DNA from: Escherichia phage T5_ev219
DNA length: 64,000 nucleotides
Sequence record: NC_134263.1
Direction: 5' to 3' (one strand)
The notes below the pieces were generated by a model that did no database searches, was not told where the DNA came from, and was given only the letters and a program-made list of their open reading frames with translations. Shown piece after piece: positions 40,122 through 52,653 of this stretch. Made by a program: the position numbers and the translations under genes. Position 1 is the first letter of the stretch. Each line of letters starts with the position of its first letter.

Positions 40122-42194
40122 TTACCTTATATGGATATACCCACTATTTAGGTCTATCTTCATCTTGTAGTATGCCTCAGGGTTTCCTGATAACGCAGCG
40201 TTCCTATCATAAATGATGTTAACACCGATCTGAGATAAGAAAGCATTTCCTGCTACAATTTTATCTGCCGTCACCGTTCCGTTAACAATCATGTTTCCGT
40301 GGAGAACCATTGCAGGGTTAACCCAACCAGACCCATTCCATTGCCTTGTAAATGCTGATTGTGGGGCATTACTATTAAATTCAGTTAATACATCATATTT
40401 AACTGGAGGAGAACCGAAGTTACTTTGAAAGAAGGAATTAGCTTGTCCATCGTCCCAACCACCTAAACCTGCTATACCTACAGAGTACATCCCAGGACCA
40501 CGTTGTCCATCATGCCCTATAGTACCTTCAGTACCACTCCACTGAACCACATCTGACCAACTAGTACCCTCTAATAACCTATTAGTAACTGGATCAAGCG
40601 TACCCGTAGTCGCATAGATATTTTGTGTCATATCTGTACGGTTAGGTGGAGTTTTTGACCAACCAGGAGGTGGATAATCTTGTTCTAGTGGTTTAGCAGG
40701 TAGAGATGTTGCTAACTTATAAACAAATACTGTCTGTTTACCTTGTAAACCAGTCTCAATATCTACGTCACCATTTGGTGTCCCAATTACTACACCACTA
40801 GAGATGCGCAAGGTAGTACCATCATAACGTATCCATTGTGTAGCGTTACCAATGTCTAATTTAGCTTTGGCAGAGGTATTATCCATACCCATCCAAATAC
40901 CAGAGTTATTATCCCCCCAAGATTTACCTTGAGTGTAAATTGCTGGATTATCCTTACCAGATAAGTTAGTCATGATAAAGTTCGCAGCATTAATATCTCT
41001 AGTAATTACTTTACCGTCAACGTTAACAACACGGTTTATAGGGTCAAAAGAAATAGGTGCTTTTCCTTCTTCATCTAGCAGACCAATGTTAATAGCACCA
41101 GTAGCTGCGTCGATTAAGAATGTCTGTCTCCAGATTTCTCCATCTTTCATGCTGCCCTTAATAAAGGCATAATTAACATCAATACCCGTCTCATTGACAA
41201 AGCTGTTGTCTAGAGGAGTATCTTCATTAAGTATAAACGTTACAGGAGCTGATTCTGTTATATCTTGCTTATTTGGTCCCCAGGCAATTGATGATACCTT
41301 AAAAGTATGCTCAACTTTCCATGGGAATGATATAATCGTTGCAGCTCTAGCAGCTCCAACGTTTATCTTTTGAGCTTTAGCCCAGCCAGTCTTGGCATAT
41401 TCTTCAGAGTTTATATAAGTAACCAGAAATTCACGGACATTAGCACCAGCACCACGTTCCCAGTCCCATTCTACTCTAACATCATATCGTTCCTTACCAT
41501 CTGCAATTCGTGCAGCTTTAAAGGCAATGTTAGTAGGTGCAGTAGGAGGTACGAAATTATAAGCTACAGTGAAAACGCTAGGATACTCATAATAACCAGA
41601 TGAGTCAACTGTAACACCATCTGGCATCGTAACTTGACCAGATATTCTGATCTTATAGTCGCCAACAGGAACACCACCAAATTTGATAGTAGGTCCCAGC
41701 GCGCCTATATAATATTTAACCCATTCACTATCTTCTGATATAGCACTTTTTAATTCAATAGTGCAGTAACTAGCTTCACCAGCAGTCTCTACAACAACTA
41801 TTGGAGCACCAACACCAACGTCAACGGGTTCTGATTCAGATCTTGCTGCAGTAATTATTGGCTTTTCCTTTGTTCTAAAGTTAGTTTCATTAGAGAGGTT
41901 GATACCAATCTTAGCTTCTAGTAACTCTGAGTCAATAATTGAGTCATAGAAAGCCCCCTGAATCTCATAGGAGGTAGAGGGGGTTAAATTATTAATCATT
42001 ACGAAGAAAGTATCTATACCGGTGTAATCACGTCTATCTATACTTTCTCCTATTTTTAACCAAAAAGATCTACCAATAACATCATAATCAGTATAAATGG
42101 AGTGCTGGACATAAGCCAAAGTATATCCAGTCATTATACTATTTAAGACCATTTTGGCTGGTGCATTATTTGAAATCATTAAATGGATGCCCAC
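40122..42194 (-). CDS. baseplate tube/central fibre protein (pb4-like)
   Basis: 690 aa; synteny downstream of pb3-like gene. Confidence 0.55.
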   Translation of the reverse strand: MGIHLMISNNAPAKMVLNSIMTGYTLAYVQHSIYTDYDVIGRSFWLKIGESIDRRDYTGIDTFFVMINNLTPSTSYEIQGAFYDSIIDSELLEAKIGINLSNETNFRTKEKPIITAARSESEPVDVGVGAPIVVVETAGEASYCTIELKSAISEDSEWVKYYIGALGPTIKFGGVPVGDYKIRISGQVTMPDGVTVDSSGYYEYPSVFTVAYNFVPPTAPTNIAFKAARIADGKERYDVRVEWDWERGAGANVREFLVTYINSEEYAKTGWAKAQKINVGAARAATIISFPWKVEHTFKVSSIAWGPNKQDITESAPVTFILNEDTPLDNSFVNETGIDVNYAFIKGSMKDGEIWRQTFLIDAATGAINIGLLDEEGKAPISFDPINRVVNVDGKVITRDINAANFIMTNLSGKDNPAIYTQGKSWGDNNSGIWMGMDNTSAKAKLDIGNATQWIRYDGTTLRISSGVVIGTPNGDVDIETGLQGKQTVFVYKLATSLPAKPLEQDYPPPGWSKTPPNRTDMTQNIYATTGTLDPVTNRLLEGTSWSDVVQWSGTEGTIGHDGQRGPGMYSVGIAGLGGWDDGQANSFFQSNFGSPPVKYDVLTEFNSNAPQSAFTRQWNGSGWVNPAMVLHGNMIVNGTVTADKIVAGNAFLSQIGVNIIYDRNAALSGNPEAYYKMKIDLNSGYIHIR

Positions 42195-45028
42195 TCCACA
42201 GACTGTTCTCCATCATCCCCTTCAGCCCTAATACGAAAATACAATTTTCTATTTATACCTAGAGCACCGCTGTTCTGGAGAGCAAAGTCTGCCTTATTAT
42301 ATGTTAATAAATAGTCATAAGTATACTGATTTTCAATACGTACACTTCTTAACATCCTATTTTGCGAATCGTGTATTTCAAGTGTATAAAATATACTCTC
42401 TATTATATCTTCTTCAGGTATTCTATCCCAAGCTAGTTTTACATCTGGGCCAACAAACTCAGTTACATCTCCAGAAGCAGTATTAGTTACCCTAAAATTA
42501 GATACTACACTAAGGTTTTTAGCAGAGTTAAGTTCTATAGACAGAGTCACCGGGGAACTTCTTCTACCATTAATATCTACTGCTCTTATCTCAAATATAG
42601 CCAGACCTGCTGGTTCCCCAATTATTTCTTGGATCATACGTTCGTTAGGATTGGTCTCTAACTGTTGTACTATGTAAGGTTCGGCATGGCCTGAGTGCAC
42701 AATAGAGTAATAAACTACATTATTGGTTAGACTCGGAAGCCAGGATAACTCACCATTTTTACCTATAGAGCCTACTAAACCGCCAGGAGTAGGGGTATAC
42801 TTAAAGTCCCTAGGAGGAAGGACATTATTACTAATATCGGGAATATCATTACCGCTATTATCAACCTGCTCAGAGTTGATGAATACATCTTCTCCATACT
42901 CCTGTAAGGTAACATTTATCTTACCCTCTCTAGAGTTTTCAACCTCATCAACTAGGAAATACTTTTTGTTCCACCCGTAACGGTCATACGTGAATGCAAT
43001 AGCATCATTGGGTTCAATCCCTATGAACTGGTATGGTAATGAGAATGAAAGTGTTCTTGAGTATCTGGATTTCTTAAGTTCTCTATCCGCAAAACTTCTT
43101 GCAGTATAGTAGTTAGTAATATTAGCAAAAGATAGTTGTAATTTTTTATCTAGGTTCTTGTCCTGTTCCTTATACTTGGAATTATAGAATGTAATAGAAT
43201 TAGTTTTCCAGCTAAGGGCGGGATCTACGATAGATGCTTGAACTGAGTTGAATTTATTTCTACCAGTAGTATCTGATAGCTCCAAATCACCGTAAGTATC
43301 TAGAAAATTAATCTCTAATGGAGTATTAGAGTATTTTTCTACAGTAACCCTATACTGGCCAGATAAATTGTTAATAGCCCCACCATAGGACTCTAACAAA
43401 CCTTGCACATTTTTAAATACTGATTCAGATGTATCCAGAATAGTATTCATTTGTACTATTTGTCTATTTTCTGCTAGTGGATCAGTCCACCCAACGTATC
43501 TCCAGTATGGCTGCCAAGATACTTGGTAGGATTCATCTATAATATCTAAGATAGCTGCTTCTTGTATCAGTTGCTGAAGCGGGAACTGATCAATAGTAAT
43601 GTTAGCGCCGTATCTATCTGAAGTTAGATAATCAAGCGTTTGCCAGATACCATTTAAACTAGTACTATCAGCAGTTACTCTACCATCAGAATGATAGACT
43701 TTTACTTTTTTACCTTGAATTTCAGCACTAACTTCAGGAATCTCAGTCCTATTTTCATTAATAGTGAAGCGCACCACTGCGTACGCAGTATCTAGTAGTT
43801 TATACCTAGCATCCCAGTACTCCGGCCCATTGCCATTCATATTCTGAAGGTAAAACCCACGTTCTTTAGCTATATCTACTAGTACTTCAGAAGCCGTTTG
43901 GTCAGGTTTTCCATGATACGTCCAAATCCTTATATCACCATTACCATCATTATACTTATATTCCTGACCATGCACAGAAGGACTACTAGAAGATATTCCT
44001 GATGCTATTCTTTGCATGGTGTCTCCGGCTACTTTTTTAACACCGAAACAGGTTCTAGCAGAGCTATCATTAGAGTCCATACAAATCATAGGGTTATCCC
44101 CAAAGGAAAAGTCAAGAAAACCGTCTATCTCTCCTTCAGCAAAAGCATATACTACGTAAACTATATTAGGATTGTGTAATTCCGTATCCGCAAAAATAGG
44201 TATTCCCGGTATTTTCTGTACACCATAAACTACTGGTATATACTTAGCAGCAAGGTTAAAATCTATATCTACTTCTTTAGTAACAGTCTCATAATACTTT
44301 TTAAGACTATAACTTCTAGATAGTCCAAATAGCTTTTTCTTAGACTTTAGCTTGTATCTTTCTTCCTGTACCTGATACTTTGCTAGAATAGAGATACTTT
44401 TATTGGCATGAAAGAAACCGTAGTCTTCTTGGTACTCAAGTCTTTTAGCCCCGTTAGATGGAACTAACTGCCCTGCTACAACCTCAAGCCCTCTATGAGA
44501 AGCATCATCAGTAAATCTACCATTAACCCTATCAAAATCATAGAATTGATTAGAACAATTCCAAGTAATTGTGGAGGTTCCAACCCCAGAAGTACTAATG
44601 TTGTCCTTAATACCCCCGCCGGTAATTCTCCCTCTAAAGTATAATAAAGGCCCGTTTGTGTCTGGGTCTACAGGTAAAATAGAACCATCCTCTGTAATAA
44701 TTGCTTGGTGGATTGATACTATTCTATCTAAAAAGGACACACCATTCTGCACTAATTTCAGTACTTCATCCTGCGCTGTACCTGTAATAGTAAAAGATAG
44801 ACTGCCAATAGATAAATCTCTATTTTGTTTATGTGTGCTAATAGATTTAACTTTACCGGCCTGGTACAAAATACCATTATATAGTACATCTCTAAAATAA
44901 TCAGTTAAATAGATAAAAGCAGTACTAGTACCAGTAGAGCCAGGTAATTCTAGGGAAATTAGACTAGCAGTTTTTATTCTGCTATTATTTTTTAAGTAGT
45001 TTCTAGCACTATCTAGTATTTTCTTCAT
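42179..45028 (-). CDS. baseplate hub protein (pb3-like)
   Basis: 949 aa, same length I recall for T5 pb3; synteny after tape measure and pb9. Confidence 0.6.
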   Translation of the reverse strand: MKKILDSARNYLKNNSRIKTASLISLELPGSTGTSTAFIYLTDYFRDVLYNGILYQAGKVKSISTHKQNRDLSIGSLSFTITGTAQDEVLKLVQNGVSFLDRIVSIHQAIITEDGSILPVDPDTNGPLLYFRGRITGGGIKDNISTSGVGTSTITWNCSNQFYDFDRVNGRFTDDASHRGLEVVAGQLVPSNGAKRLEYQEDYGFFHANKSISILAKYQVQEERYKLKSKKKLFGLSRSYSLKKYYETVTKEVDIDFNLAAKYIPVVYGVQKIPGIPIFADTELHNPNIVYVVYAFAEGEIDGFLDFSFGDNPMICMDSNDSSARTCFGVKKVAGDTMQRIASGISSSSPSVHGQEYKYNDGNGDIRIWTYHGKPDQTASEVLVDIAKERGFYLQNMNGNGPEYWDARYKLLDTAYAVVRFTINENRTEIPEVSAEIQGKKVKVYHSDGRVTADSTSLNGIWQTLDYLTSDRYGANITIDQFPLQQLIQEAAILDIIDESYQVSWQPYWRYVGWTDPLAENRQIVQMNTILDTSESVFKNVQGLLESYGGAINNLSGQYRVTVEKYSNTPLEINFLDTYGDLELSDTTGRNKFNSVQASIVDPALSWKTNSITFYNSKYKEQDKNLDKKLQLSFANITNYYTARSFADRELKKSRYSRTLSFSLPYQFIGIEPNDAIAFTYDRYGWNKKYFLVDEVENSREGKINVTLQEYGEDVFINSEQVDNSGNDIPDISNNVLPPRDFKYTPTPGGLVGSIGKNGELSWLPSLTNNVVYYSIVHSGHAEPYIVQQLETNPNERMIQEIIGEPAGLAIFEIRAVDINGRRSSPVTLSIELNSAKNLSVVSNFRVTNTASGDVTEFVGPDVKLAWDRIPEEDIIESIFYTLEIHDSQNRMLRSVRIENQYTYDYLLTYNKADFALQNSGALGINRKLYFRIRAEGDDGEQSVEWASI

Positions 45029-45748: not shown

Positions 45749-48700
45749 TTAAGAATTTCCTAGTGTTTTTAGGCTAGCACCATTCTCATTCAGAGCTAAT
45801 TCTACTGCATCCCTCAGAGCACCGCTATTACTAGAGGCGAATTCCCTAAAACTAGCAGCATCCATAGCACTAATATTCAGGATGATAGGCCTTCCTGAGG
45901 TTGAGTTAGATGAGGTTTTTAGCTCATCATTAGGCGTAGCTTTCATAGGAACCATAGGGGTAACTACTTCTGTACCATGCTCACCCATTTGATAGCTAAC
46001 CCCAGGGTACATATTACCACCCTCAGCACGAGGAACGAAAGAGTTAGCACCGCCTATGCCTTTATCGCCACGGATATAAGATAATTCACCAGCATTAGCA
46101 GACATAGACACATCTATATTCTTCTGACGCTCTCCAAGAGTTAAATAACTAGTAGTATCCGCTCCAGAATCTGCAATACTTGACATACTAGAGGCAGAGG
46201 ATGCCTGTGCTAATGCCAGAGCACCTGCTAATCCTGCCGCTACCATCAGAGGGATAGAGAACGGGTATGGTACAGCTGTTGCTGCCTGCATAACTGCTAC
46301 TGCAGTTTGGATGATAATCTGCTTCTTAGCTGCATCTTGTTGAATCTTCAGCTTTTCAGCTTCTAGCTTCTTCAATTTAGCTTTAGATGCTTCTGATTTA
46401 CCATCACGTTTCTGCTCCGCTGCGATAGCTGCATCAATAGCACTAACCTGTTGACTAGTACTATACTGAATCATAGAAGATACAGTTTGCATGCCAGAAG
46501 CAATCAAGGAGGTAGTATCTAGGGATCCCTGAGAGAACTGAATCATGGCGTTAGTTAAGTTACCCATACTTTGAGCCACAGCGGTTGCTTCAGAATTTAA
46601 TTCAGATAGCTTAGAGATTGCCTGATCATAAGAAGCCATTCTATTTTGCATATCTGCAAAATCTTTGTCTTCCCCAGATAGTCCAGTTGTAGGAGTGTAT
46701 ACAGCACCCACAGAAGATCCTACCTGTTGCTGCATTTGGCCTTCTCTCTGCTTTCTAAGTTGCTCTAGAGTAGCAGCAGTTTTATAGATCTCATTACGAT
46801 ATTTGATCTCTTCTTCGGTATTGCCCTTAGATAGTTCTAGCTGTTCTTGCAAAACAGATAATCTTTCTGTAAGAATCTGGGCTTGGCCAGTAACATTTCT
46901 TTGTGTTTGGCTGACTTCTAGTGCATCCATAAGAGATGATACATGTGATGCAGTTGCCTGCTTCTCAGCCTCCCATAACTCCCGGCTTATTTGTGCTTGC
47001 GCACGTCTAGACTGTTCCGCCTCTTTCTGTTTGTCCGCTTGTTTTGTATACCATTCGTACTTCTCTTTCTCTACAGTTAGTTCTAGTTTTAGCTGAGCTA
47101 ATCTATATTGAGTAGTAGTCATAGTACGGTCATTCAGAAGAGCTATCTCACGATCTACACCAAGAATTTTATCTGTGTAATCCTTGACCTTCTTCTGAGC
47201 TTCCATACCCTGATTGGTAAGTTTAAGTTTCTCCAGCTGAATTTTTTCAATTTCTTTCTCAACAGCTTTATTCCCCTGGTTTGTTTGAAGAACACGGCGT
47301 AAAGCAGCTTCTTGCTCTTCTAACTGTTGCAACTCTAAACGTCTACCAGCTTCCTGAGCCTTTTCCTTATCCTTAGTTTGATTATACACATCAGCTATTT
47401 TCTGTTGAACTGCTAATTGATTTTTAGTTTCATTACCAGTTAGTTTAACATACTCAGATAGAGCCTGAGATGCAGTTTTCATTTCAGACAGGGTGTTATA
47501 GCCCAGGTTAAGGTTTTTAACATACTCATCTGCACTCTTACCAGTGCCTAAGGATAGAGATTCTATGTTTTTTATAGCATCTGCTAAAGTAGCACTAGTT
47601 TTAGCAGCAGTATCTGTATTCTGAGCAACGTTCTGTATGTCATTAGCTAAGTCACTAGCAGTTTTCTTAGTTTGATTATATGCTTTCTGTTGTTCAGTTA
47701 GTCCTTTTAATACTGTGGAGTTAAAGTCATATACAGCACCAGGATCAGTAGTATCCCTCTGTAGATTAATCTGTTTTTGGAATTCTGGATTAGCTTTTGC
47801 AGCAGCAGCACCCGCAGCTTGATAGGCTGACTTCCAAGCATTAAGGTTTTCAGTAGAATCTTCTACTTCCTTACCTAGTCTGGTTACTTGTAGACCCATA
47901 GCCGCAGTTTCTTCTACGAACTTTTTATTAGCTTCGGAAGCACCAGCAGCAGCAAGACCAACAGGAATACCTTCACCAACTTGACGTATGGCTAATCTTG
48001 TATAGAAATCCGCTTGCTCCATTCGTTTATCGAATTCTGATTTTAGCTTATTACGCTTATCAAGAGATTCCTTATACATATCTAGAGCTTTATTATAGCC
48101 TTCTTCAGAAGCTGCCAAACTTAAAGCAACAGCACCAACGTTGGTAGGATCTATCTGTCTATTAGTTTTTTCTTGAGCTCTAGCTGCTTCAGCAGATACA
48201 GAAGCCTGAGAAGTATAAAATACTGTGTTGATAGCATCAATTACCGGCCCTAAATACTTAGCAGCAGCCTGCTGAATCTTTCTCAGCGCGGCATCAGCAT
48301 TAGCGGCAAATTGCTCCCATGGAGTAGCACGTAAAACTTCATCTAAGTAACCAAAACGTTTAGTAGACTCTGCTATAACAGCATTAGCATACGCTTGCTG
48401 TTTCTGGAAGGTAGTAAGGCTATTAATATTATATGTTATACCTGTGTTTGCAGCATTTAACTGTTTAACGTAATCAGCATAAGCATCATTAAGACGAATA
48501 GTAACACCAAGTTCATCCAGAAGTTCGATTTCCTGTTTAGATACACCCTTAATTACACGGTTAAGTGCATCAGTCATATCAACGCCAAGAACAGCAGCAG
48601 CACGACGAGCTACTAGACCAAATTTATTAAGTTGTTCAGCATCAAAACCGTATGCAGAAGCAGAGGATGCTTGTCTCATAGCTTCTTCAAAGGAAATAGC

Positions 48701-49429
48701 GTACCCGGCTGCTTCTTGTAGGGATCTAGCAAGGGACTGAACAGGAGTACCTGTCTGAGTACCTACTATAACACCAAATTTTTCTAGACGATTTAGCTGA
48801 TCACCTAACTTAAGTTGTTCGAATGCAGATTGCAAAACGAAGATGTTGGAAGCAAGAGCTGCATACATAATAGGTAAACTACCACCTATCTTAGCCATTG
48901 CCGCAAAATCACGAGTTGCACCACGTGCTGAACCAGAAGTATTACCAATAGCTCTAGAAGCTCTACCAGCAGCACCAGTAGTATCATTAAAGCCCTTAGT
49001 TGTACCACCTAAAGCTCTATTAGTATCGTATAACCTATCTTGAACTTTCTCTGTTGCAGCTGCAACATCATTGCCCATTGTTTTAACAGATCTAGAAACT
49101 CCATCAAATCCAACTTCTAGTTTATCTGCTACTTCAATCATTGTAATAGCTAGGTCATCCAGCTTAGTCCCTATATCATTAATAGATTTAGTAATACCAA
49201 GCATGCCCCTACTAGCCTGCATTTTAGTAAGACTTTTTGCTGCTCTATCTGCTGCCCTCTCAATGGAGTATAGAGTTTTGGGCATTTTACCTAACTGCTC
49301 ATTCGTTAGCTCAGAAGCCGCAGCAGCATTCTCTAATGCATCAGATACGTTTTCAATAGACTTTGCAGTACGAGTTGCCCCCTTCTGTTTAACGTCTATC
49401 AGTAATTCTCGTATTAGCTTATCAGTCAT
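45749..49429 (-). CDS. tail tape measure protein (pb2-like)
   Basis: 1226 aa, long coiled-coil-rich protein with Gly/Ala hydrophobic segment; position. Confidence 0.8.
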   Translation of the reverse strand: MTDKLIRELLIDVKQKGATRTAKSIENVSDALENAAAASELTNEQLGKMPKTLYSIERAADRAAKSLTKMQASRGMLGITKSINDIGTKLDDLAITMIEVADKLEVGFDGVSRSVKTMGNDVAAATEKVQDRLYDTNRALGGTTKGFNDTTGAAGRASRAIGNTSGSARGATRDFAAMAKIGGSLPIMYAALASNIFVLQSAFEQLKLGDQLNRLEKFGVIVGTQTGTPVQSLARSLQEAAGYAISFEEAMRQASSASAYGFDAEQLNKFGLVARRAAAVLGVDMTDALNRVIKGVSKQEIELLDELGVTIRLNDAYADYVKQLNAANTGITYNINSLTTFQKQQAYANAVIAESTKRFGYLDEVLRATPWEQFAANADAALRKIQQAAAKYLGPVIDAINTVFYTSQASVSAEAARAQEKTNRQIDPTNVGAVALSLAASEEGYNKALDMYKESLDKRNKLKSEFDKRMEQADFYTRLAIRQVGEGIPVGLAAAGASEANKKFVEETAAMGLQVTRLGKEVEDSTENLNAWKSAYQAAGAAAAKANPEFQKQINLQRDTTDPGAVYDFNSTVLKGLTEQQKAYNQTKKTASDLANDIQNVAQNTDTAAKTSATLADAIKNIESLSLGTGKSADEYVKNLNLGYNTLSEMKTASQALSEYVKLTGNETKNQLAVQQKIADVYNQTKDKEKAQEAGRRLELQQLEEQEAALRRVLQTNQGNKAVEKEIEKIQLEKLKLTNQGMEAQKKVKDYTDKILGVDREIALLNDRTMTTTQYRLAQLKLELTVEKEKYEWYTKQADKQKEAEQSRRAQAQISRELWEAEKQATASHVSSLMDALEVSQTQRNVTGQAQILTERLSVLQEQLELSKGNTEEEIKYRNEIYKTAATLEQLRKQREGQMQQQVGSSVGAVYTPTTGLSGEDKDFADMQNRMASYDQAISKLSELNSEATAVAQSMGNLTNAMIQFSQGSLDTTSLIASGMQTVSSMIQYSTSQQVSAIDAAIAAEQKRDGKSEASKAKLKKLEAEKLKIQQDAAKKQIIIQTAVAVMQAATAVPYPFSIPLMVAAGLAGALALAQASSASSMSSIADSGADTTSYLTLGERQKNIDVSMSANAGELSYIRGDKGIGGANSFVPRAEGGNMYPGVSYQMGEHGTEVVTPMVPMKATPNDELKTSSNSTSGRPIILNISAMDAASFREFASSNSGALRDAVELALNENGASLKTLGNS

Positions 49430-49452: not shown

Positions 49453-49477
49453 GGCTCTGGGCAAATCACCCAGAGCC
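49453..49477 (-). terminator. hairpin plus U tract directly upstream of the tape-measure start (attenuator-like)
   Basis: ggctctggg caaatca cccagagcc with minus-strand TTTTTT; part of a duplicated cassette (see 54468-54487). Confidence 0.55.
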
Positions 49478-49512: not shown

Positions 49513-49881
49513 TTATCGCGCCCGAGATCTAGCATGTGGCTTAACGTTAGGTATTCTTCCGTTTTGCGGTTTATGCTTCTCGGCGCGTTTACGTGCAGCA
49601 TCTACAGCTTTAGCATCAAATATATTGATAATGTGTAGAACAAATTCTTTTTCTATAGGATCGGTAATCCCATAAATATCAAATAAAACACCTAGAGCAG
49701 CTTTATCTTTACCTATAAAGATAGGAAAGTCACCAGGTATGAAACAGTCAACTAGACTATTATAAATATTCATACTAATAGCTACAATAGGTGGAAAATC
49801 TTCAAGCTCAACAGGCATAGCCTTAGGATCAGGTTCTATACCCATTGACTCACAAAGTATTAAATATTGTTGTTTAGTCAT
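49513..49881 (-). CDS. tail assembly chaperone, downstream ORF (possible frameshift extension)
   Basis: No convincing RBS; frame open upstream to 49968, overlapping the end of ORF 49943-50347. Confidence 0.45.
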   Translation of the reverse strand: MTKQQYLILCESMGIEPDPKAMPVELEDFPPIVAISMNIYNSLVDCFIPGDFPIFIGKDKAALGVLFDIYGITDPIEKEFVLHIINIFDAKAVDAARKRAEKHKPQNGRIPNVKPHARSRAR

Positions 49882-49942
49882 TTTAGATGCTGAGCTTTTA
49901 ATACATTTATCAGCAAAGTCGGCAACAGCATCTAGTAGTTCT

Positions 49943-50347
49943 TTACGCTTTTGGGCTACGAAAAGTGTCTAAATGGAACACTGTTTGGTTGATCCAAGAA
50001 TCAAACGCAGCAGAGTTCTGCATAAGCATTACAGCATTGTCACGACTAAATGGAACTTCAGTATCAGGATCCGCATCTGTTTCAATCAGCATCAGTTTCT
50101 CAACATCACCAACTGTTAGACCAGTCCAACCTTTAATAGCTGCATCAACAAATGCTTCAATGAACTTGTCATCATCCTGTACTTGAATTAGAGTACCGTT
50201 AACCCATTCATCACGTTTAGCAGAAGAAATAACACGTTTAGAAGTAGCGCGAGACATATAATTGAGTTCTAATTTAAAGTTCGGCATACCTGGGTAGGAA
50301 AGAGTAATAGTACGGGTATCAAGAGTAATATCTTTTAAGTTAATCAT
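49943..50347 (-). CDS. tail assembly chaperone-like protein
   Basis: ORF track 49943-50362 trimmed to ATG (MINLKD) with GGAGA RBS; immediately upstream of tape-measure region. Confidence 0.45.
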   Translation of the reverse strand: MINLKDITLDTRTITLSYPGMPNFKLELNYMSRATSKRVISSAKRDEWVNGTLIQVQDDDKFIEAFVDAAIKGWTGLTVGDVEKLMLIETDADPDTEVPFSRDNAVMLMQNSAAFDSWINQTVFHLDTFRSPKA

Positions 50348-51242
50348 TTTTAATTTCTCCAAAGAAATCTATTCTCACTGGGTCTGAAGAAGCAGTAGGT
50401 ATAATATCCCACTCAACTTTATACACATCTGAGAAATCTAGGCGTTTTGTAATACGTGCTAAAGGAAAATCTATAGAAATATTATTATTTCTTATATTTA
50501 AAGGTACATCGGTTTCTGGTTCGATATTGTAAACCATATCTCCAGCAAAACGTTTTAAGTAATATAGAGAAATGGTTGCTGAAGCATTCATCTCATTTAC
50601 ATAGGCTCTTTTATTATTATATATTTTATTTATATCAAAAACACTCTTATCTTCTCTCCAAGAGCATTGCTGTTGAAAAGATAAAGAGGCGGAAATAAGA
50701 CCAGGTAAGATGCTACCGTTAGTAGAAACTATTACTGGGCTATAAGACATTGCTTCACCCTGTATAATAGAAGCTGCTTCTCTATATGTAGATACTTCGG
50801 AAAATTTCCCTGATTCGATACCAACGTTAAGAATTGGTATATTCTTATCTAAAGAAAAATCTACAGTAGATACATAGCAGTTCTCAAAGTATACACAGTT
50901 ATTATCTTTATTTACTATATAGATATTAAACATAATAGGTTCAATATTGTTACTATATAGTGGTAGTAAGAAAGTATTACCTTTCCTATCAAAACCTAGC
51001 CATTCGAAAAAATTAGCTTCAGTAAGCGTATTACTAAAATTTACTGCTAGAGAGATGGAAGAAGGAGTTTGAGCATTTATAATAGAGTCTGCATAGTTAG
51101 TTCTACGATGAATAGTCCTACGAAGGGTCTTAAATTCTTCGTAGGAGGTTTGTACATCATAGTTTGATAGGGCATCAAAATGAAATGCCCTACCATCATA
51201 CTCAACTATAACTTTTGACTCTCGCATTAGAGAGTAGTACAT
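50340..51242 (-). CDS. minor tail protein (p140-like)
   Basis: 300 aa; synteny after tail tube gene. Confidence 0.5.
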   Translation of the reverse strand: MYYSLMRESKVIVEYDGRAFHFDALSNYDVQTSYEEFKTLRRTIHRRTNYADSIINAQTPSSISLAVNFSNTLTEANFFEWLGFDRKGNTFLLPLYSNNIEPIMFNIYIVNKDNNCVYFENCYVSTVDFSLDKNIPILNVGIESGKFSEVSTYREAASIIQGEAMSYSPVIVSTNGSILPGLISASLSFQQQCSWREDKSVFDINKIYNNKRAYVNEMNASATISLYYLKRFAGDMVYNIEPETDVPLNIRNNNISIDFPLARITKRLDFSDVYKVEWDIIPTASSDPVRIDFFGEIKND

Positions 51243-51246
51243 TTAT

Positions 51247-52653
51247 TTAACCACCAGCACTAACTGTGATAGTTTTAGTACCTTCTACACCAGAACCGTC
51301 TTTAGCTACAGCCTTCACAGTAACTGCACCAGTTTTAGAAGCATCAGCTGTTAATAACCCAGATTCTGCATCAATCGTAGCTGCGTTACCACTAGAAATA
51401 GACCAAGTCACAGCCTTATTAGTAGCTTCTGGAGGTGTTACCTCAACAGACATCTGTAAAGTATTACTATTTGTTACAGAAGTAGCCTCACCAGCCGATT
51501 TAACTGTGATTGATTCGACTAGTTTTGGTGGAGTTTTAGCACCATCCCCCGTAGCAATTAGATTCGCTATTGTAGTTTTGGTATACTTGTTAGAGAAGCC
51601 TAAGTATCCTTCGTCACCAGTATCCAAATCAGTAGGAATAGCTTTAAACTCTACTGAAGTACCAAGTACATCATCAGTCTCAATAGTAGGGATGTTAACG
51701 TGCGCCTGTTTAGCAACTAACACAGCTGCCGGTCGCTCATCATCGTATTCACCACCCAAAATAAGTGCAATTTCAAAACGGTTAACTACCTTAAGGGTTT
51801 TGACAAGATCTTTGTACAGTTCCATGGAACCAAGAGACTTATCATTAAGGTATGCTGTCAAAGAACCCGTTAACTCAAACGCACCCGTAAATGAGCCGAT
51901 TGGAATATTTACACGTGACATAATATTCGGGGTTAGGTACGTGATGTTGTTATTAATGGTAAAAGTACCACCAGTAATAGGAATATCATATGCCTTATCA
52001 GAATCCATATCCTTAATTTTTAGGATAGTTAACTTGTTCTTTATATAAGAACTCTGAATAGTCATATAGGTTTCATCATCAATACCTAATGCATCTGGAT
52101 CAAATGGTTGGCTATCTAACGGGATGAGCTGATTACCATTACCAGACCAGGTTACACGACCAATATCCTCAATATCAACGTTAACTTCTGCCTGGTTGAT
52201 CTGGCAGGAGTCAATATAGCTCCATGCTTTATCAGTAAGAATGTAGATGTGCAGCATAGCCAACTCATGATAAGAGTTATCTTTAAAGTTAACCATGAAG
52301 TTAGCTTCATTATTATGCGCACCTGTGTCTCCCTCAAGGTTTAATGCTTTACCACTAGAAAGAGCGTGCCACAACATATAGTCGGGAACAATCTGTTTAT
52401 TAGAGGTTTTATCCTTGTATGGCAGGATATATGTGGAGAAGCTCCACTCAGCTGCATTCAAGGAATCATTAAAACGTTTAGAACCACGAGTAGGACGCGG
52501 ACCAGCTTCGTTAACAGTAATATCTGTTGAGTTACTGTCCTGACCCCAAGAAATATCATCCTGAACTAGAATCTCTTGCGTGTTGGTCTTATCGTGACCA
52601 GTCTTAACCGTAGACACGAAGATTCGAGTATTACGTAATAGTTGTAAAGACAT
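51247..52653 (-). CDS. major tail tube protein (pb6-like) with C-terminal Ig-like domain
   Basis: 468 aa; C-terminal Ig-like (BIG2-type) segment VTVKAVAKDGSGVEGTKTITVSAGG. Confidence 0.7.
   Translation of the reverse strand: MSLQLLRNTRIFVSTVKTGHDKTNTQEILVQDDISWGQDSNSTDITVNEAGPRPTRGSKRFNDSLNAAEWSFSTYILPYKDKTSNKQIVPDYMLWHALSSGKALNLEGDTGAHNNEANFMVNFKDNSYHELAMLHIYILTDKAWSYIDSCQINQAEVNVDIEDIGRVTWSGNGNQLIPLDSQPFDPDALGIDDETYMTIQSSYIKNKLTILKIKDMDSDKAYDIPITGGTFTINNNITYLTPNIMSRVNIPIGSFTGAFELTGSLTAYLNDKSLGSMELYKDLVKTLKVVNRFEIALILGGEYDDERPAAVLVAKQAHVNIPTIETDDVLGTSVEFKAIPTDLDTGDEGYLGFSNKYTKTTIANLIATGDGAKTPPKLVESITVKSAGEATSVTNSNTLQMSVEVTPPEATNKAVTWSISSGNAATIDAESGLLTADASKTGAVTVKAVAKDGSGVEGTKTITVSAGG

Follow-up and report, generated by a model that had tools for sequence, protein, structure and literature searches.

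A conserved TTT_CGN site and a probable +1 frameshift between two putative tail assembly chaperone genes of a T5-like phage

How does the second of two small genes upstream of the tape measure gene come to be translated in Escherichia phage T5_ev219, and why does its reading frame run back, beyond its annotated start, into the gene that precedes it? The question is posed by the minus strand of a 64,000-nucleotide (nt) stretch of this phage (NC_134263.1), referred to here as the window, in which open reading frame 1 (ORF1) and ORF2 lie in different frames that are both open over a short overlap. The answer reached here is that the two are in all likelihood joined by a +1 frameshift into a fusion protein resembling GT of phage lambda. 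Comparison of related loci locates the frame change at TTT_C (49963-49960), towards the 5' end of the overlap, rather than at AAA_G or the stop codon near its 3' end. The parts of the locus, with lengths in amino acids (aa) where they apply, are as follows.

49943-50347, minus strand: ORF1, putative G-like tail assembly chaperone gene, 134 aa, equivalent to T5.143
49513-49881, minus strand: ORF2 as annotated, 122 aa, equivalent to T5.142
49513-49959, minus strand: predicted T-like part in the +1 frame, 148 codons and a stop, containing ORF2; matches phrog_3914 and phrog_313
49946-49968, minus strand: overlap of both open frames, 23 nt, inside which the change of frame must fall
49958-49966, minus strand: proposed +1 shift cassette ACT_TTT_CGT, with ACT in the E site (49966-49964), TTT in the P site (49963-49961) and CGT in the A site (49960-49958)
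49882-49942, minus strand: linker, intergenic in public records, with the +1-frame peptide KELLDAVADFADKCIKSSASK and a coding substitution pattern

The geometry of the two frames can be read directly from the translated minus strand. ORF1 ends with the codons GAC ACT TTT CGT AGC CCA AAA GCG TAA, the stop occupying 49945-49943, and the frame of ORF2 is +1 (equivalently -2) relative to it, its codons starting one base to the 3' side. This second frame is closed by a TAG at 49971-49969 and is then open from 49968 to its own stop at 49515-49513. An earlier reading made from the letters alone (the sequence-only reading) had put the stop of ORF1 at 49943-49945, had traced the ORF2 frame open to 49968 and had estimated an overlap of about 23 nt, all of which proved exact. 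It had also remarked that ORF2 has no recognisable Shine-Dalgarno sequence, and indeed the sequence preceding the ATG at 49881-49879, AAAAGCTCAGCATCTAAA, contains no GGAG-like or other Shine-Dalgarno element. ORF1, by comparison, starts at the ATG at 50347-50345 with GGAG 9 nt upstream, and the same start is found in all annotated homologues; the automatic ORF list places the start at a TTG at 50362 (139 aa), with 50348-50362 as extra sequence. In the -1 frame a stop is reached after 5 codons. A canonical -1 heptamer within the overlap, C_CCA_AAA (49955-49949, in the ORF1 frame), leads into this frame; it is not conserved, T5 having TCA for CCA, and was rejected as probably a chance occurrence.

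What is it, then, that marks these two frames as parts of one protein? One indication comes from profile matches, since phrog_313, named 'tail assembly chaperone' and 258 profile positions long, matches ORF1 through positions 12-139 (E 2.9e-34) and the extended ORF2 frame through positions 170-258 (E 2.1e-17). The extended ORF2 frame is also matched by phrog_3914 (E 1.3e-56); the chaperone names of PHROG families are annotations and not tested functions. The conceptually fused protein, used as a tblastn query, matches 908 phage records, and these matches go down to ~31% identity in phages of Vibrio, Proteus, Klebsiella and Pantoea. Among 60 sampled rows a two-piece match covers 80-100% of the fused query in all except a truncated Bf23 fragment. 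So constant an arrangement is not accidental.

A second indication is that substitutions in the linker follow the pattern of coding sequence when it is read in the +1 frame. When the 27 different T5-like sequences of the region are compared, 21 sites vary in the 61 nt from 49942 to 49882, and these fall 5/1/15 over positions 1/2/3 of the +1-frame codons, a distribution like that of ORF2 proper (5/0/15). Purely synonymous changes in this frame account for 15 of the 18 variable linker codons, and the peptide is almost invariant because of this. The same behaviour extends into the overlap, where the two sites that vary among T5-likes 3' of TTT_C are silent in the +1 frame and residue-changing in the frame of ORF1 (P/S and A/T). 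No ATG, GTG or TTG is found in the +1 frame from 49968 to 49881, linker included, and the linker, lacking a start codon, is therefore translatable only by ribosomes coming from ORF1. The amino-acid similarity of the +1 reading runs unbroken from the shift site, through the linker, into other genera, in which the Met at 49881 is exchanged for I, L, F or V and the annotated starts of ORF2 homologues are scattered.

These properties are difficult to combine with the view that ORF1 and ORF2 are simply independent genes, with ORF2 translated from the ATG at 49881 either through weak initiation de novo or through re-initiation after the ORF1 stop, which lies 62 nt upstream, and with an overlap that has no function. 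Such a view is in keeping with how the locus has been annotated, as two genes in every record inspected, with the presence of the ATG in T5-likes and with the output of gene callers, which give short T-only proteins for 146 representative homologues of the ORF2 part found among 1.84 billion proteins with the extended ORF2 frame as query. A natural fusion within a single ORF is not among these 146; in each, the T part was called as a short ORF of its own, the two long matches (P0006 and P0132) being repetitive and spurious. What makes two unconnected genes very unlikely is that the ATG has no Shine-Dalgarno sequence before it and encodes a Met that is not conserved, that the 61 nt in front of it show a coding pattern in a frame with no start codon, that similarity is continuous from the shift site onwards, that the overlap and TTT_CGN are kept even at ~30% identity, and that a sister clade, considered below, has canonical -1 heptamers close to the same place.

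If ORF1 and ORF2 are joined by a +1 shift, where within the 23 nt does the frame change? Junctions were taken from 12 annotated loci, from more than 130 IMG/VR locus entries (many of which represent the same contigs twice) and from five lineages that were reached via ORF1 homologues. In every +1 lineage checked, which amounts to ~16 deep lineages and the T5-likes and takes in Novosibvirus, Pogseptimavirus and Thalassavirus, the overlap contains an in-frame TTT_CGT or TTT_CGA.

T5-likes and Epseptimavirus: ACT_TTT_CGT
Sugarlandvirus: ACT_TTT_CGT
Pantoea AAS21: ACC_TTT_CGT
Proteus RP7: AAC_TTT_CGT
Vibrio X1 and Gary: AAC_TTT_CGA
Vibrio D51: TTG_TTT_CGA
Vibrio D28: AAC_TTT_CGT
IMG/VR contigs L114, L115 and L124: AAC_TTT_CGT or AAT_TTT_CGT
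Logan/NCBI entries L143-L147: ACG, ACT, ACT, ACT and TCC in that order, each followed by TTT_CGT

The surroundings of this hexanucleotide are far from fixed. The distance from TTT_CGN to the ORF1 stop ranges from 0 to ~22 codons and the upstream limit of the +1 frame also varies; in the window the cassette (49966-49958) stands 5 nt past the opening of that frame. The overlap is reduced to a minimum of 11 nt in Vibrio phage D28 (ACAACTTTCGT) and to 14 nt in L143 and L146, and in such narrow shared stretches TTT_C alone offers re-pairing. When ORF1 homologues are aligned, F129 and R130 do not vary, and the tail after them differs in both length and sequence. The window uses TTT for 59% of Phe codons and CGN for 66% of Arg codons; the chance that 16 of 16 lineages would have TTT followed by CGN is ~3e-7, a rough star-phylogeny figure in which the lineages are taken as independent. 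The claim of the sequence-only reading that the shift would have to be +1 (or -2) rather than the common -1 is upheld, in its +1 form, by the +1 relation of the frames together with the conservation of TTT_CGN across Demerecviridae and metagenomic relatives, and the comparison of orthologous regions that it had proposed brought to light no ortholog without the overlapping open frames.

The same comparison bears on whether a +1 shift might take place at some other point, either through tRNA-Lys on AAA_G (49951-49948), which would permit Lys to re-pair onto AAG, or on GCG with TAA in the A site, in the manner of prfB-type cases where A-site stop codons stimulate +1 shifting. Both elements do lie inside the 23-nt overlap of the window, but they are absent in Sugarlandvirus, in the Pantoea, Proteus and Vibrio phages and in the metagenomic lineages, all of which keep TTT_CGN, and the overlaps of D28, L143 and L146 are too short for anything except TTT_C. 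Re-pairing from GCG to CGU would moreover be poor, and the substitutions 3' of TTT_C follow the +1 frame and not that of ORF1. The locus also differs from prfB in that no GGAGG-like element is seen by eye in the upstream sequence CAGTGTTCCATTTAGACACT and in that the A site holds CGT, with the stop five codons later. A shift at either of these other positions is accordingly regarded as highly improbable.

The remaining alternatives are that the polymerase slips on the T run during transcription or that the ribosome shifts by -2, as it does in Mu. Both are implausible and the least credible of all, for although -2 is formally equivalent to +1 and is documented for Mu gpGT, and although T5-likes have a run of four Ts at the site, that run is only 3-4 nt long and is three in most lineages (AACTTTCG), productive polymerase slippage usually needing much longer homopolymer runs, and there is no good -2 re-pairing of the Mu type, since tRNA-Phe would have to move from UUU to CUU here, or to ACU in the AACUUU lineages, and tRNA-Arg from CGU to UUC, all of which pair poorly, whereas the +1 move from UUU to UUC pairs perfectly.

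Is it the fusion itself that has been maintained, or only the reading of each part? Relevant to this is a clade of uncultured phages (IMG/VR entries L042-L066 and L089-L141, for example L117 and L123 on ~100-kb contigs) with ORF1 identities of 33-39%, in which the T part lies in the -1 frame. Almost every member has a canonical heptamer, either G_GGA_AAC or A_AAT_TTT; L125 has only the non-canonical T_TCT_TTT. The heptamers are found at conserved Asn and Phe codons; their final codon is the Phe codon of the +1 shift or the one preceding it, and the -1 slip therefore starts upstream of the +1 site by one to three codons. The two clades thus have in common homologous G and T parts, the length and order of the fused product, and shift sites that lie within three codons of one another around the Asn-Phe pair. 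The conceptual fused proteins are 255-290 aa long and align gap-free across the junction in both clades, and a tape measure homologue comes next in both. Neighbour-joining recovers the -1 clade as monophyletic and puts the +1 lineages on the remaining deep branches. That the same fused product is kept with opposite shift directions is hard to explain unless the fusion is the selected product. The clades with a -1 heptamer and with +1 UUU_CGN can be viewed as a natural experiment, in which the direction of recoding changes and the product is kept.

The obvious precedent for such a product is the G and GT proteins of lambda, which are made by -1 programmed frameshifting (Levin 1993 and Xu 2004, as summarised in a passage of PMC5009743) in a G:GT ratio of ~30:1. 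In both phages two overlapping ORFs directly precede the tape measure gene, the second of them lacks its own start, and the products are of similar size, 134 and 277 aa here and 140 and 279 aa in lambda. The systems differ in that the shift is +1 on UUU_C here and -1 on G_GGA_AAG in lambda, in that a p140-type baseplate-tube gene stands between the tube gene and the chaperones here, and in that the present pair is known from sequence. No sequence similarity to lambda GT was detected (hhalign probability 0.1%), there is no NCBIfam or Pfam match for ORF1 or ORF2, and a sequence search of the PDB gave nothing significant. Pfam PF27119 (Phage_YdaY) occurs as a precomputed match only on ORF1 homologues (48-96% identity) and was not returned for ORF1 itself. 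Xu and colleagues are reported to have found, in 2004, that such chaperone pairs are conserved in arrangement rather than sequence. From position, sizes, architecture and profile matches, ORF1 and ORF2 probably form a tail assembly chaperone pair of the lambda type, with ORF1 as its G part and ORF2 as its T part. The sequence-only reading had recognised the usual place of a G/GT pair, and the location between the p140-type gene and the tape measure gene, together with the phrog_313 match, agrees with it.

The precedent for the site lies elsewhere, in eukaryotic viruses. In influenza A the +1 site for PA-X, UCC_UUU_CGU, was established by peptide sequencing (Firth 2012, PMC3498833); tRNA-Phe binds UUC better than UUU, and changing UUU_CGU to UUC_AGA abolishes PA-X shifting (PMC3498833). 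UUU_CGN is likewise the proposed +1 motif of plant amalgaviruses (Nibert 2016, PMC5052127), and the efficiency measured for the influenza site is ~1-2% (PMC5052127). The phage site shares with these the hexanucleotide UUU_CGU (UUU_CGA in Vibrio phages), its position at the 5' end of the +1 overlap, the lack of obvious RNA structure or another stimulator, and a low expected efficiency. It is different in that bacterial ribosomes and tRNAs are involved, in that the product is a phage assembly chaperone, in that the E-site codon is mostly ACU, AAC or AAU and not UCC, and in that the A-site CGU is not rare, so that the rare or slow Arg codon associated with the motif is not what is seen here. The role of the CGN codon in the A site was itself left uncertain in the papers on eukaryotic viruses (PMC3498833, PMC5052127). 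Pectobacterium phage DU_PP_V (MF979564.1, L147), with the overlap ACTCCTTTCGTTCAAAAACAGAA, has the cassette TCC_TTT_CGT, which is the full influenza PA-X sequence UCC_UUU_CGU.

Sites of this general kind are also known in bacteria and phages. Bacterial UUU_Y sites prone to +1 shifting include Yersinia YopN-TyeA (cited in a passage of PMC5009743), though the Yersinia-type cases are adventitious or confined to a single genus, whereas the phage site is conserved family-wide at one codon of one gene. Non -1 shifts in tail chaperones are represented by Mu gpGT (-2), by HSTV-2 (probably +1) and by 350 'forward' cases among the positive slippery sites of the SEA-PHAGES training set; these have in common with the present locus the extension of a tail chaperone through a shift other than -1 and differ from it in phage group and host.

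How would the shift operate? On the simplest account, most ribosomes would translate ORF1 to its stop and so give the 134-aa G-like chaperone, while a minority would stall with CGU in the A site and peptidyl-tRNA-Phe paired to UUU (49963-49961). This tRNA, whose anticodon is 3'-AAG-5', would slip forward by one base, from UUU to UUC (49962-49960), after which decoding in the +1 frame would continue from GUA (49959-49957) through the linker and ORF2; in other lineages GAR or GUN is found at this codon. The product would be a GT-like fusion of 129 + 148 = 277 aa with a predicted junction at which ...HLDTF is followed by VAQKRKELL.... By analogy with lambda, the N-terminal part that both products share would coat the pb2-type tape measure protein and the T part would recruit the pb6-type tail tube protein. 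A low frequency of slippage would set the G:GT ratio, for which a few per cent would suit a pair of this kind. Slippage of the P-site tRNA on UUU_C is likely to be the exact event, held with somewhat less assurance than the fusion by a +1 shift as such. We infer that the shift is ribosomal, that it proceeds through P-site slippage on UUU_C at low frequency, and that the two products have the roles outlined; in T5 tail assembly the pair would be expected to function accordingly.

The composition of the window may provide a further clue to the behaviour of the dicodon. In the 43 window ORFs of at least 150 aa, in-frame TTT_CGN occurs 4 times against 11.3 expected (Poisson P ~0.012), whereas TTC_CGN is not depleted (11 observed, 7.9 expected). 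This depletion is consistent with avoidance of a shift-prone dicodon. Another in-frame TTT_CGT is present at 42233-42238 (minus strand), as codon 931 of a 949-aa ORF (42182-45028), a large tail gene; the dicodon is close to its 3' end, and the +1 frame there is open for 17 codons.

Several points nevertheless weigh against a programmed +1 shift at TTT_CGN, and they are best considered together. No joined coding sequence is annotated in any of the ~20 public records inspected, all of which have two separate genes, and T5 and Sugarland are said, in the part of PMC6256483 that points to Zivanovic et al. 2014, to have no predicted frameshift signal. The papers searched contain no peptide, reporter or genetic data on a fused protein or on frameshifting at this locus. 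The conservation of Phe-Arg could in part reflect protein constraint on the G product combined with constraint from the overlapping +1 codon; the T5-like overlap contains a second +1-compatible tetranucleotide, the AAA_G at 49951-49948; and initiation at the ATG at 49881 is possible as an additional route to the T part. Nor is there a clear stimulator. Within the long ORFs of the window 47% of Arg residues are encoded by CGT, and CGU is common in E. coli at 20.2 per 1000 codons; because it is the commonest Arg codon of the window, a stimulatory slow A-site codon is not evident. No Shine-Dalgarno-like element is seen by eye within ~25 nt upstream of TTT, and a 141-nt fold reveals no significant RNA structure downstream (z -0.82). 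In the Vibrio phages the CGA codon may be slowly decoded. The window has no tRNA genes that might bear on decoding.

A 9-bp stem, formed by UAGAUGCUG and CAGCAUCUA (49934-49926 with 49892-49884, minus strand), ends 2 nt before the AUG of ORF2. Among 21 T5-like variants, L034 has a compensatory change from U-A to C-G in this stem and L015 a change from U-A to U-G. As it starts ~27 nt after the shift site, the stem is probably too far away to act on a ribosome paused there.

What would follow if the fusion is made as proposed? A PA-X-type UUU_CGN cassette that apparently works on bacterial ribosomes throughout a phage family, and a switch between -1 and +1 shifting within one protein family, are the features most likely to strike a specialist in recoding. 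The broader proposition is that all Demerecviridae (T5 and its relatives), which by long-standing account have no chaperone frameshift signal, use an unrecognised programmed +1 frameshift at UUU_CGN, which would be the first natural family-wide use of this PA-X and amalgavirus cassette in a bacterial system, and that this protein family has switched between -1 and +1 within three codons; the balance tips somewhat in favour of it. If true, UUU_CGN would be inherently prone to shifting on bacterial and eukaryotic ribosomes alike, however rare or common the A-site codon. The 277-aa fusion would correct the annotation of the phage genomes that carry the pair (908 records match, of which a sample was inspected) and would give work on tail assembly in T5, a classical model whose tail is actively studied, its missing GT-type component. 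The locus would also make a motif that has so far been studied in eukaryotic viruses accessible to genetics in E. coli.

The window belongs to Tequintavirus, and 1.1 kb around the locus is 97.5% identical to Escherichia phage chee24 of that genus and has megablast matches in 442 phage records. On the minus strand the genes are arranged as pb6-type tube, p140-type baseplate tube, ORF1, ORF2 and tape measure, an order that recurs at homologous loci. The neighbours are as follows.

51247-52653, minus strand: pb6-type major tail protein gene, with a Big_2 domain and a match to phrog_3575
50340-51242, minus strand: p140-type baseplate tube protein gene, the upstream neighbour, matching Pfam PF23779 (E 4.1e-140) and phrog_3889
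45749-49429, minus strand: tape measure protein gene, pb2-type, 1226 aa, the downstream neighbour, named from annotation in 97%-identical records

The start of ORF1, at its ATG, and the end of the p140-type gene, at its stop, share an 8-nt overlap. The tape measure protein, presumed to be the client of the chaperones, is represented at homologous loci by proteins with PF24164/PF24165 (TMP_N/TMP_C). Between the stop of ORF2 and the start of the tape measure gene, at 49453-49477 (minus strand), there is a strong terminator-like hairpin with an 11-bp stem, 7 G-C pairs and a T run; T5 records label its equivalent a putative rho-independent terminator. Between this terminator and pb2, T5 carries an additional gene, T5.141, for an endonuclease that is absent from the window.

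The T5 reference records list T5.143 and T5.142 separately, as 'tail assembly chaperone' or 'hypothetical' proteins. Two oddities of labelling were met among the database entries. The record PP892525.1 (L148), from the T5-like phage vB_EcoS_I14, carries a Felixounavirus taxonomy line, and a 96%-identical ORF1 homologue (P0147) is found on a 776-nt contig labelled Enterococcus faecalis, where it is probably contamination.

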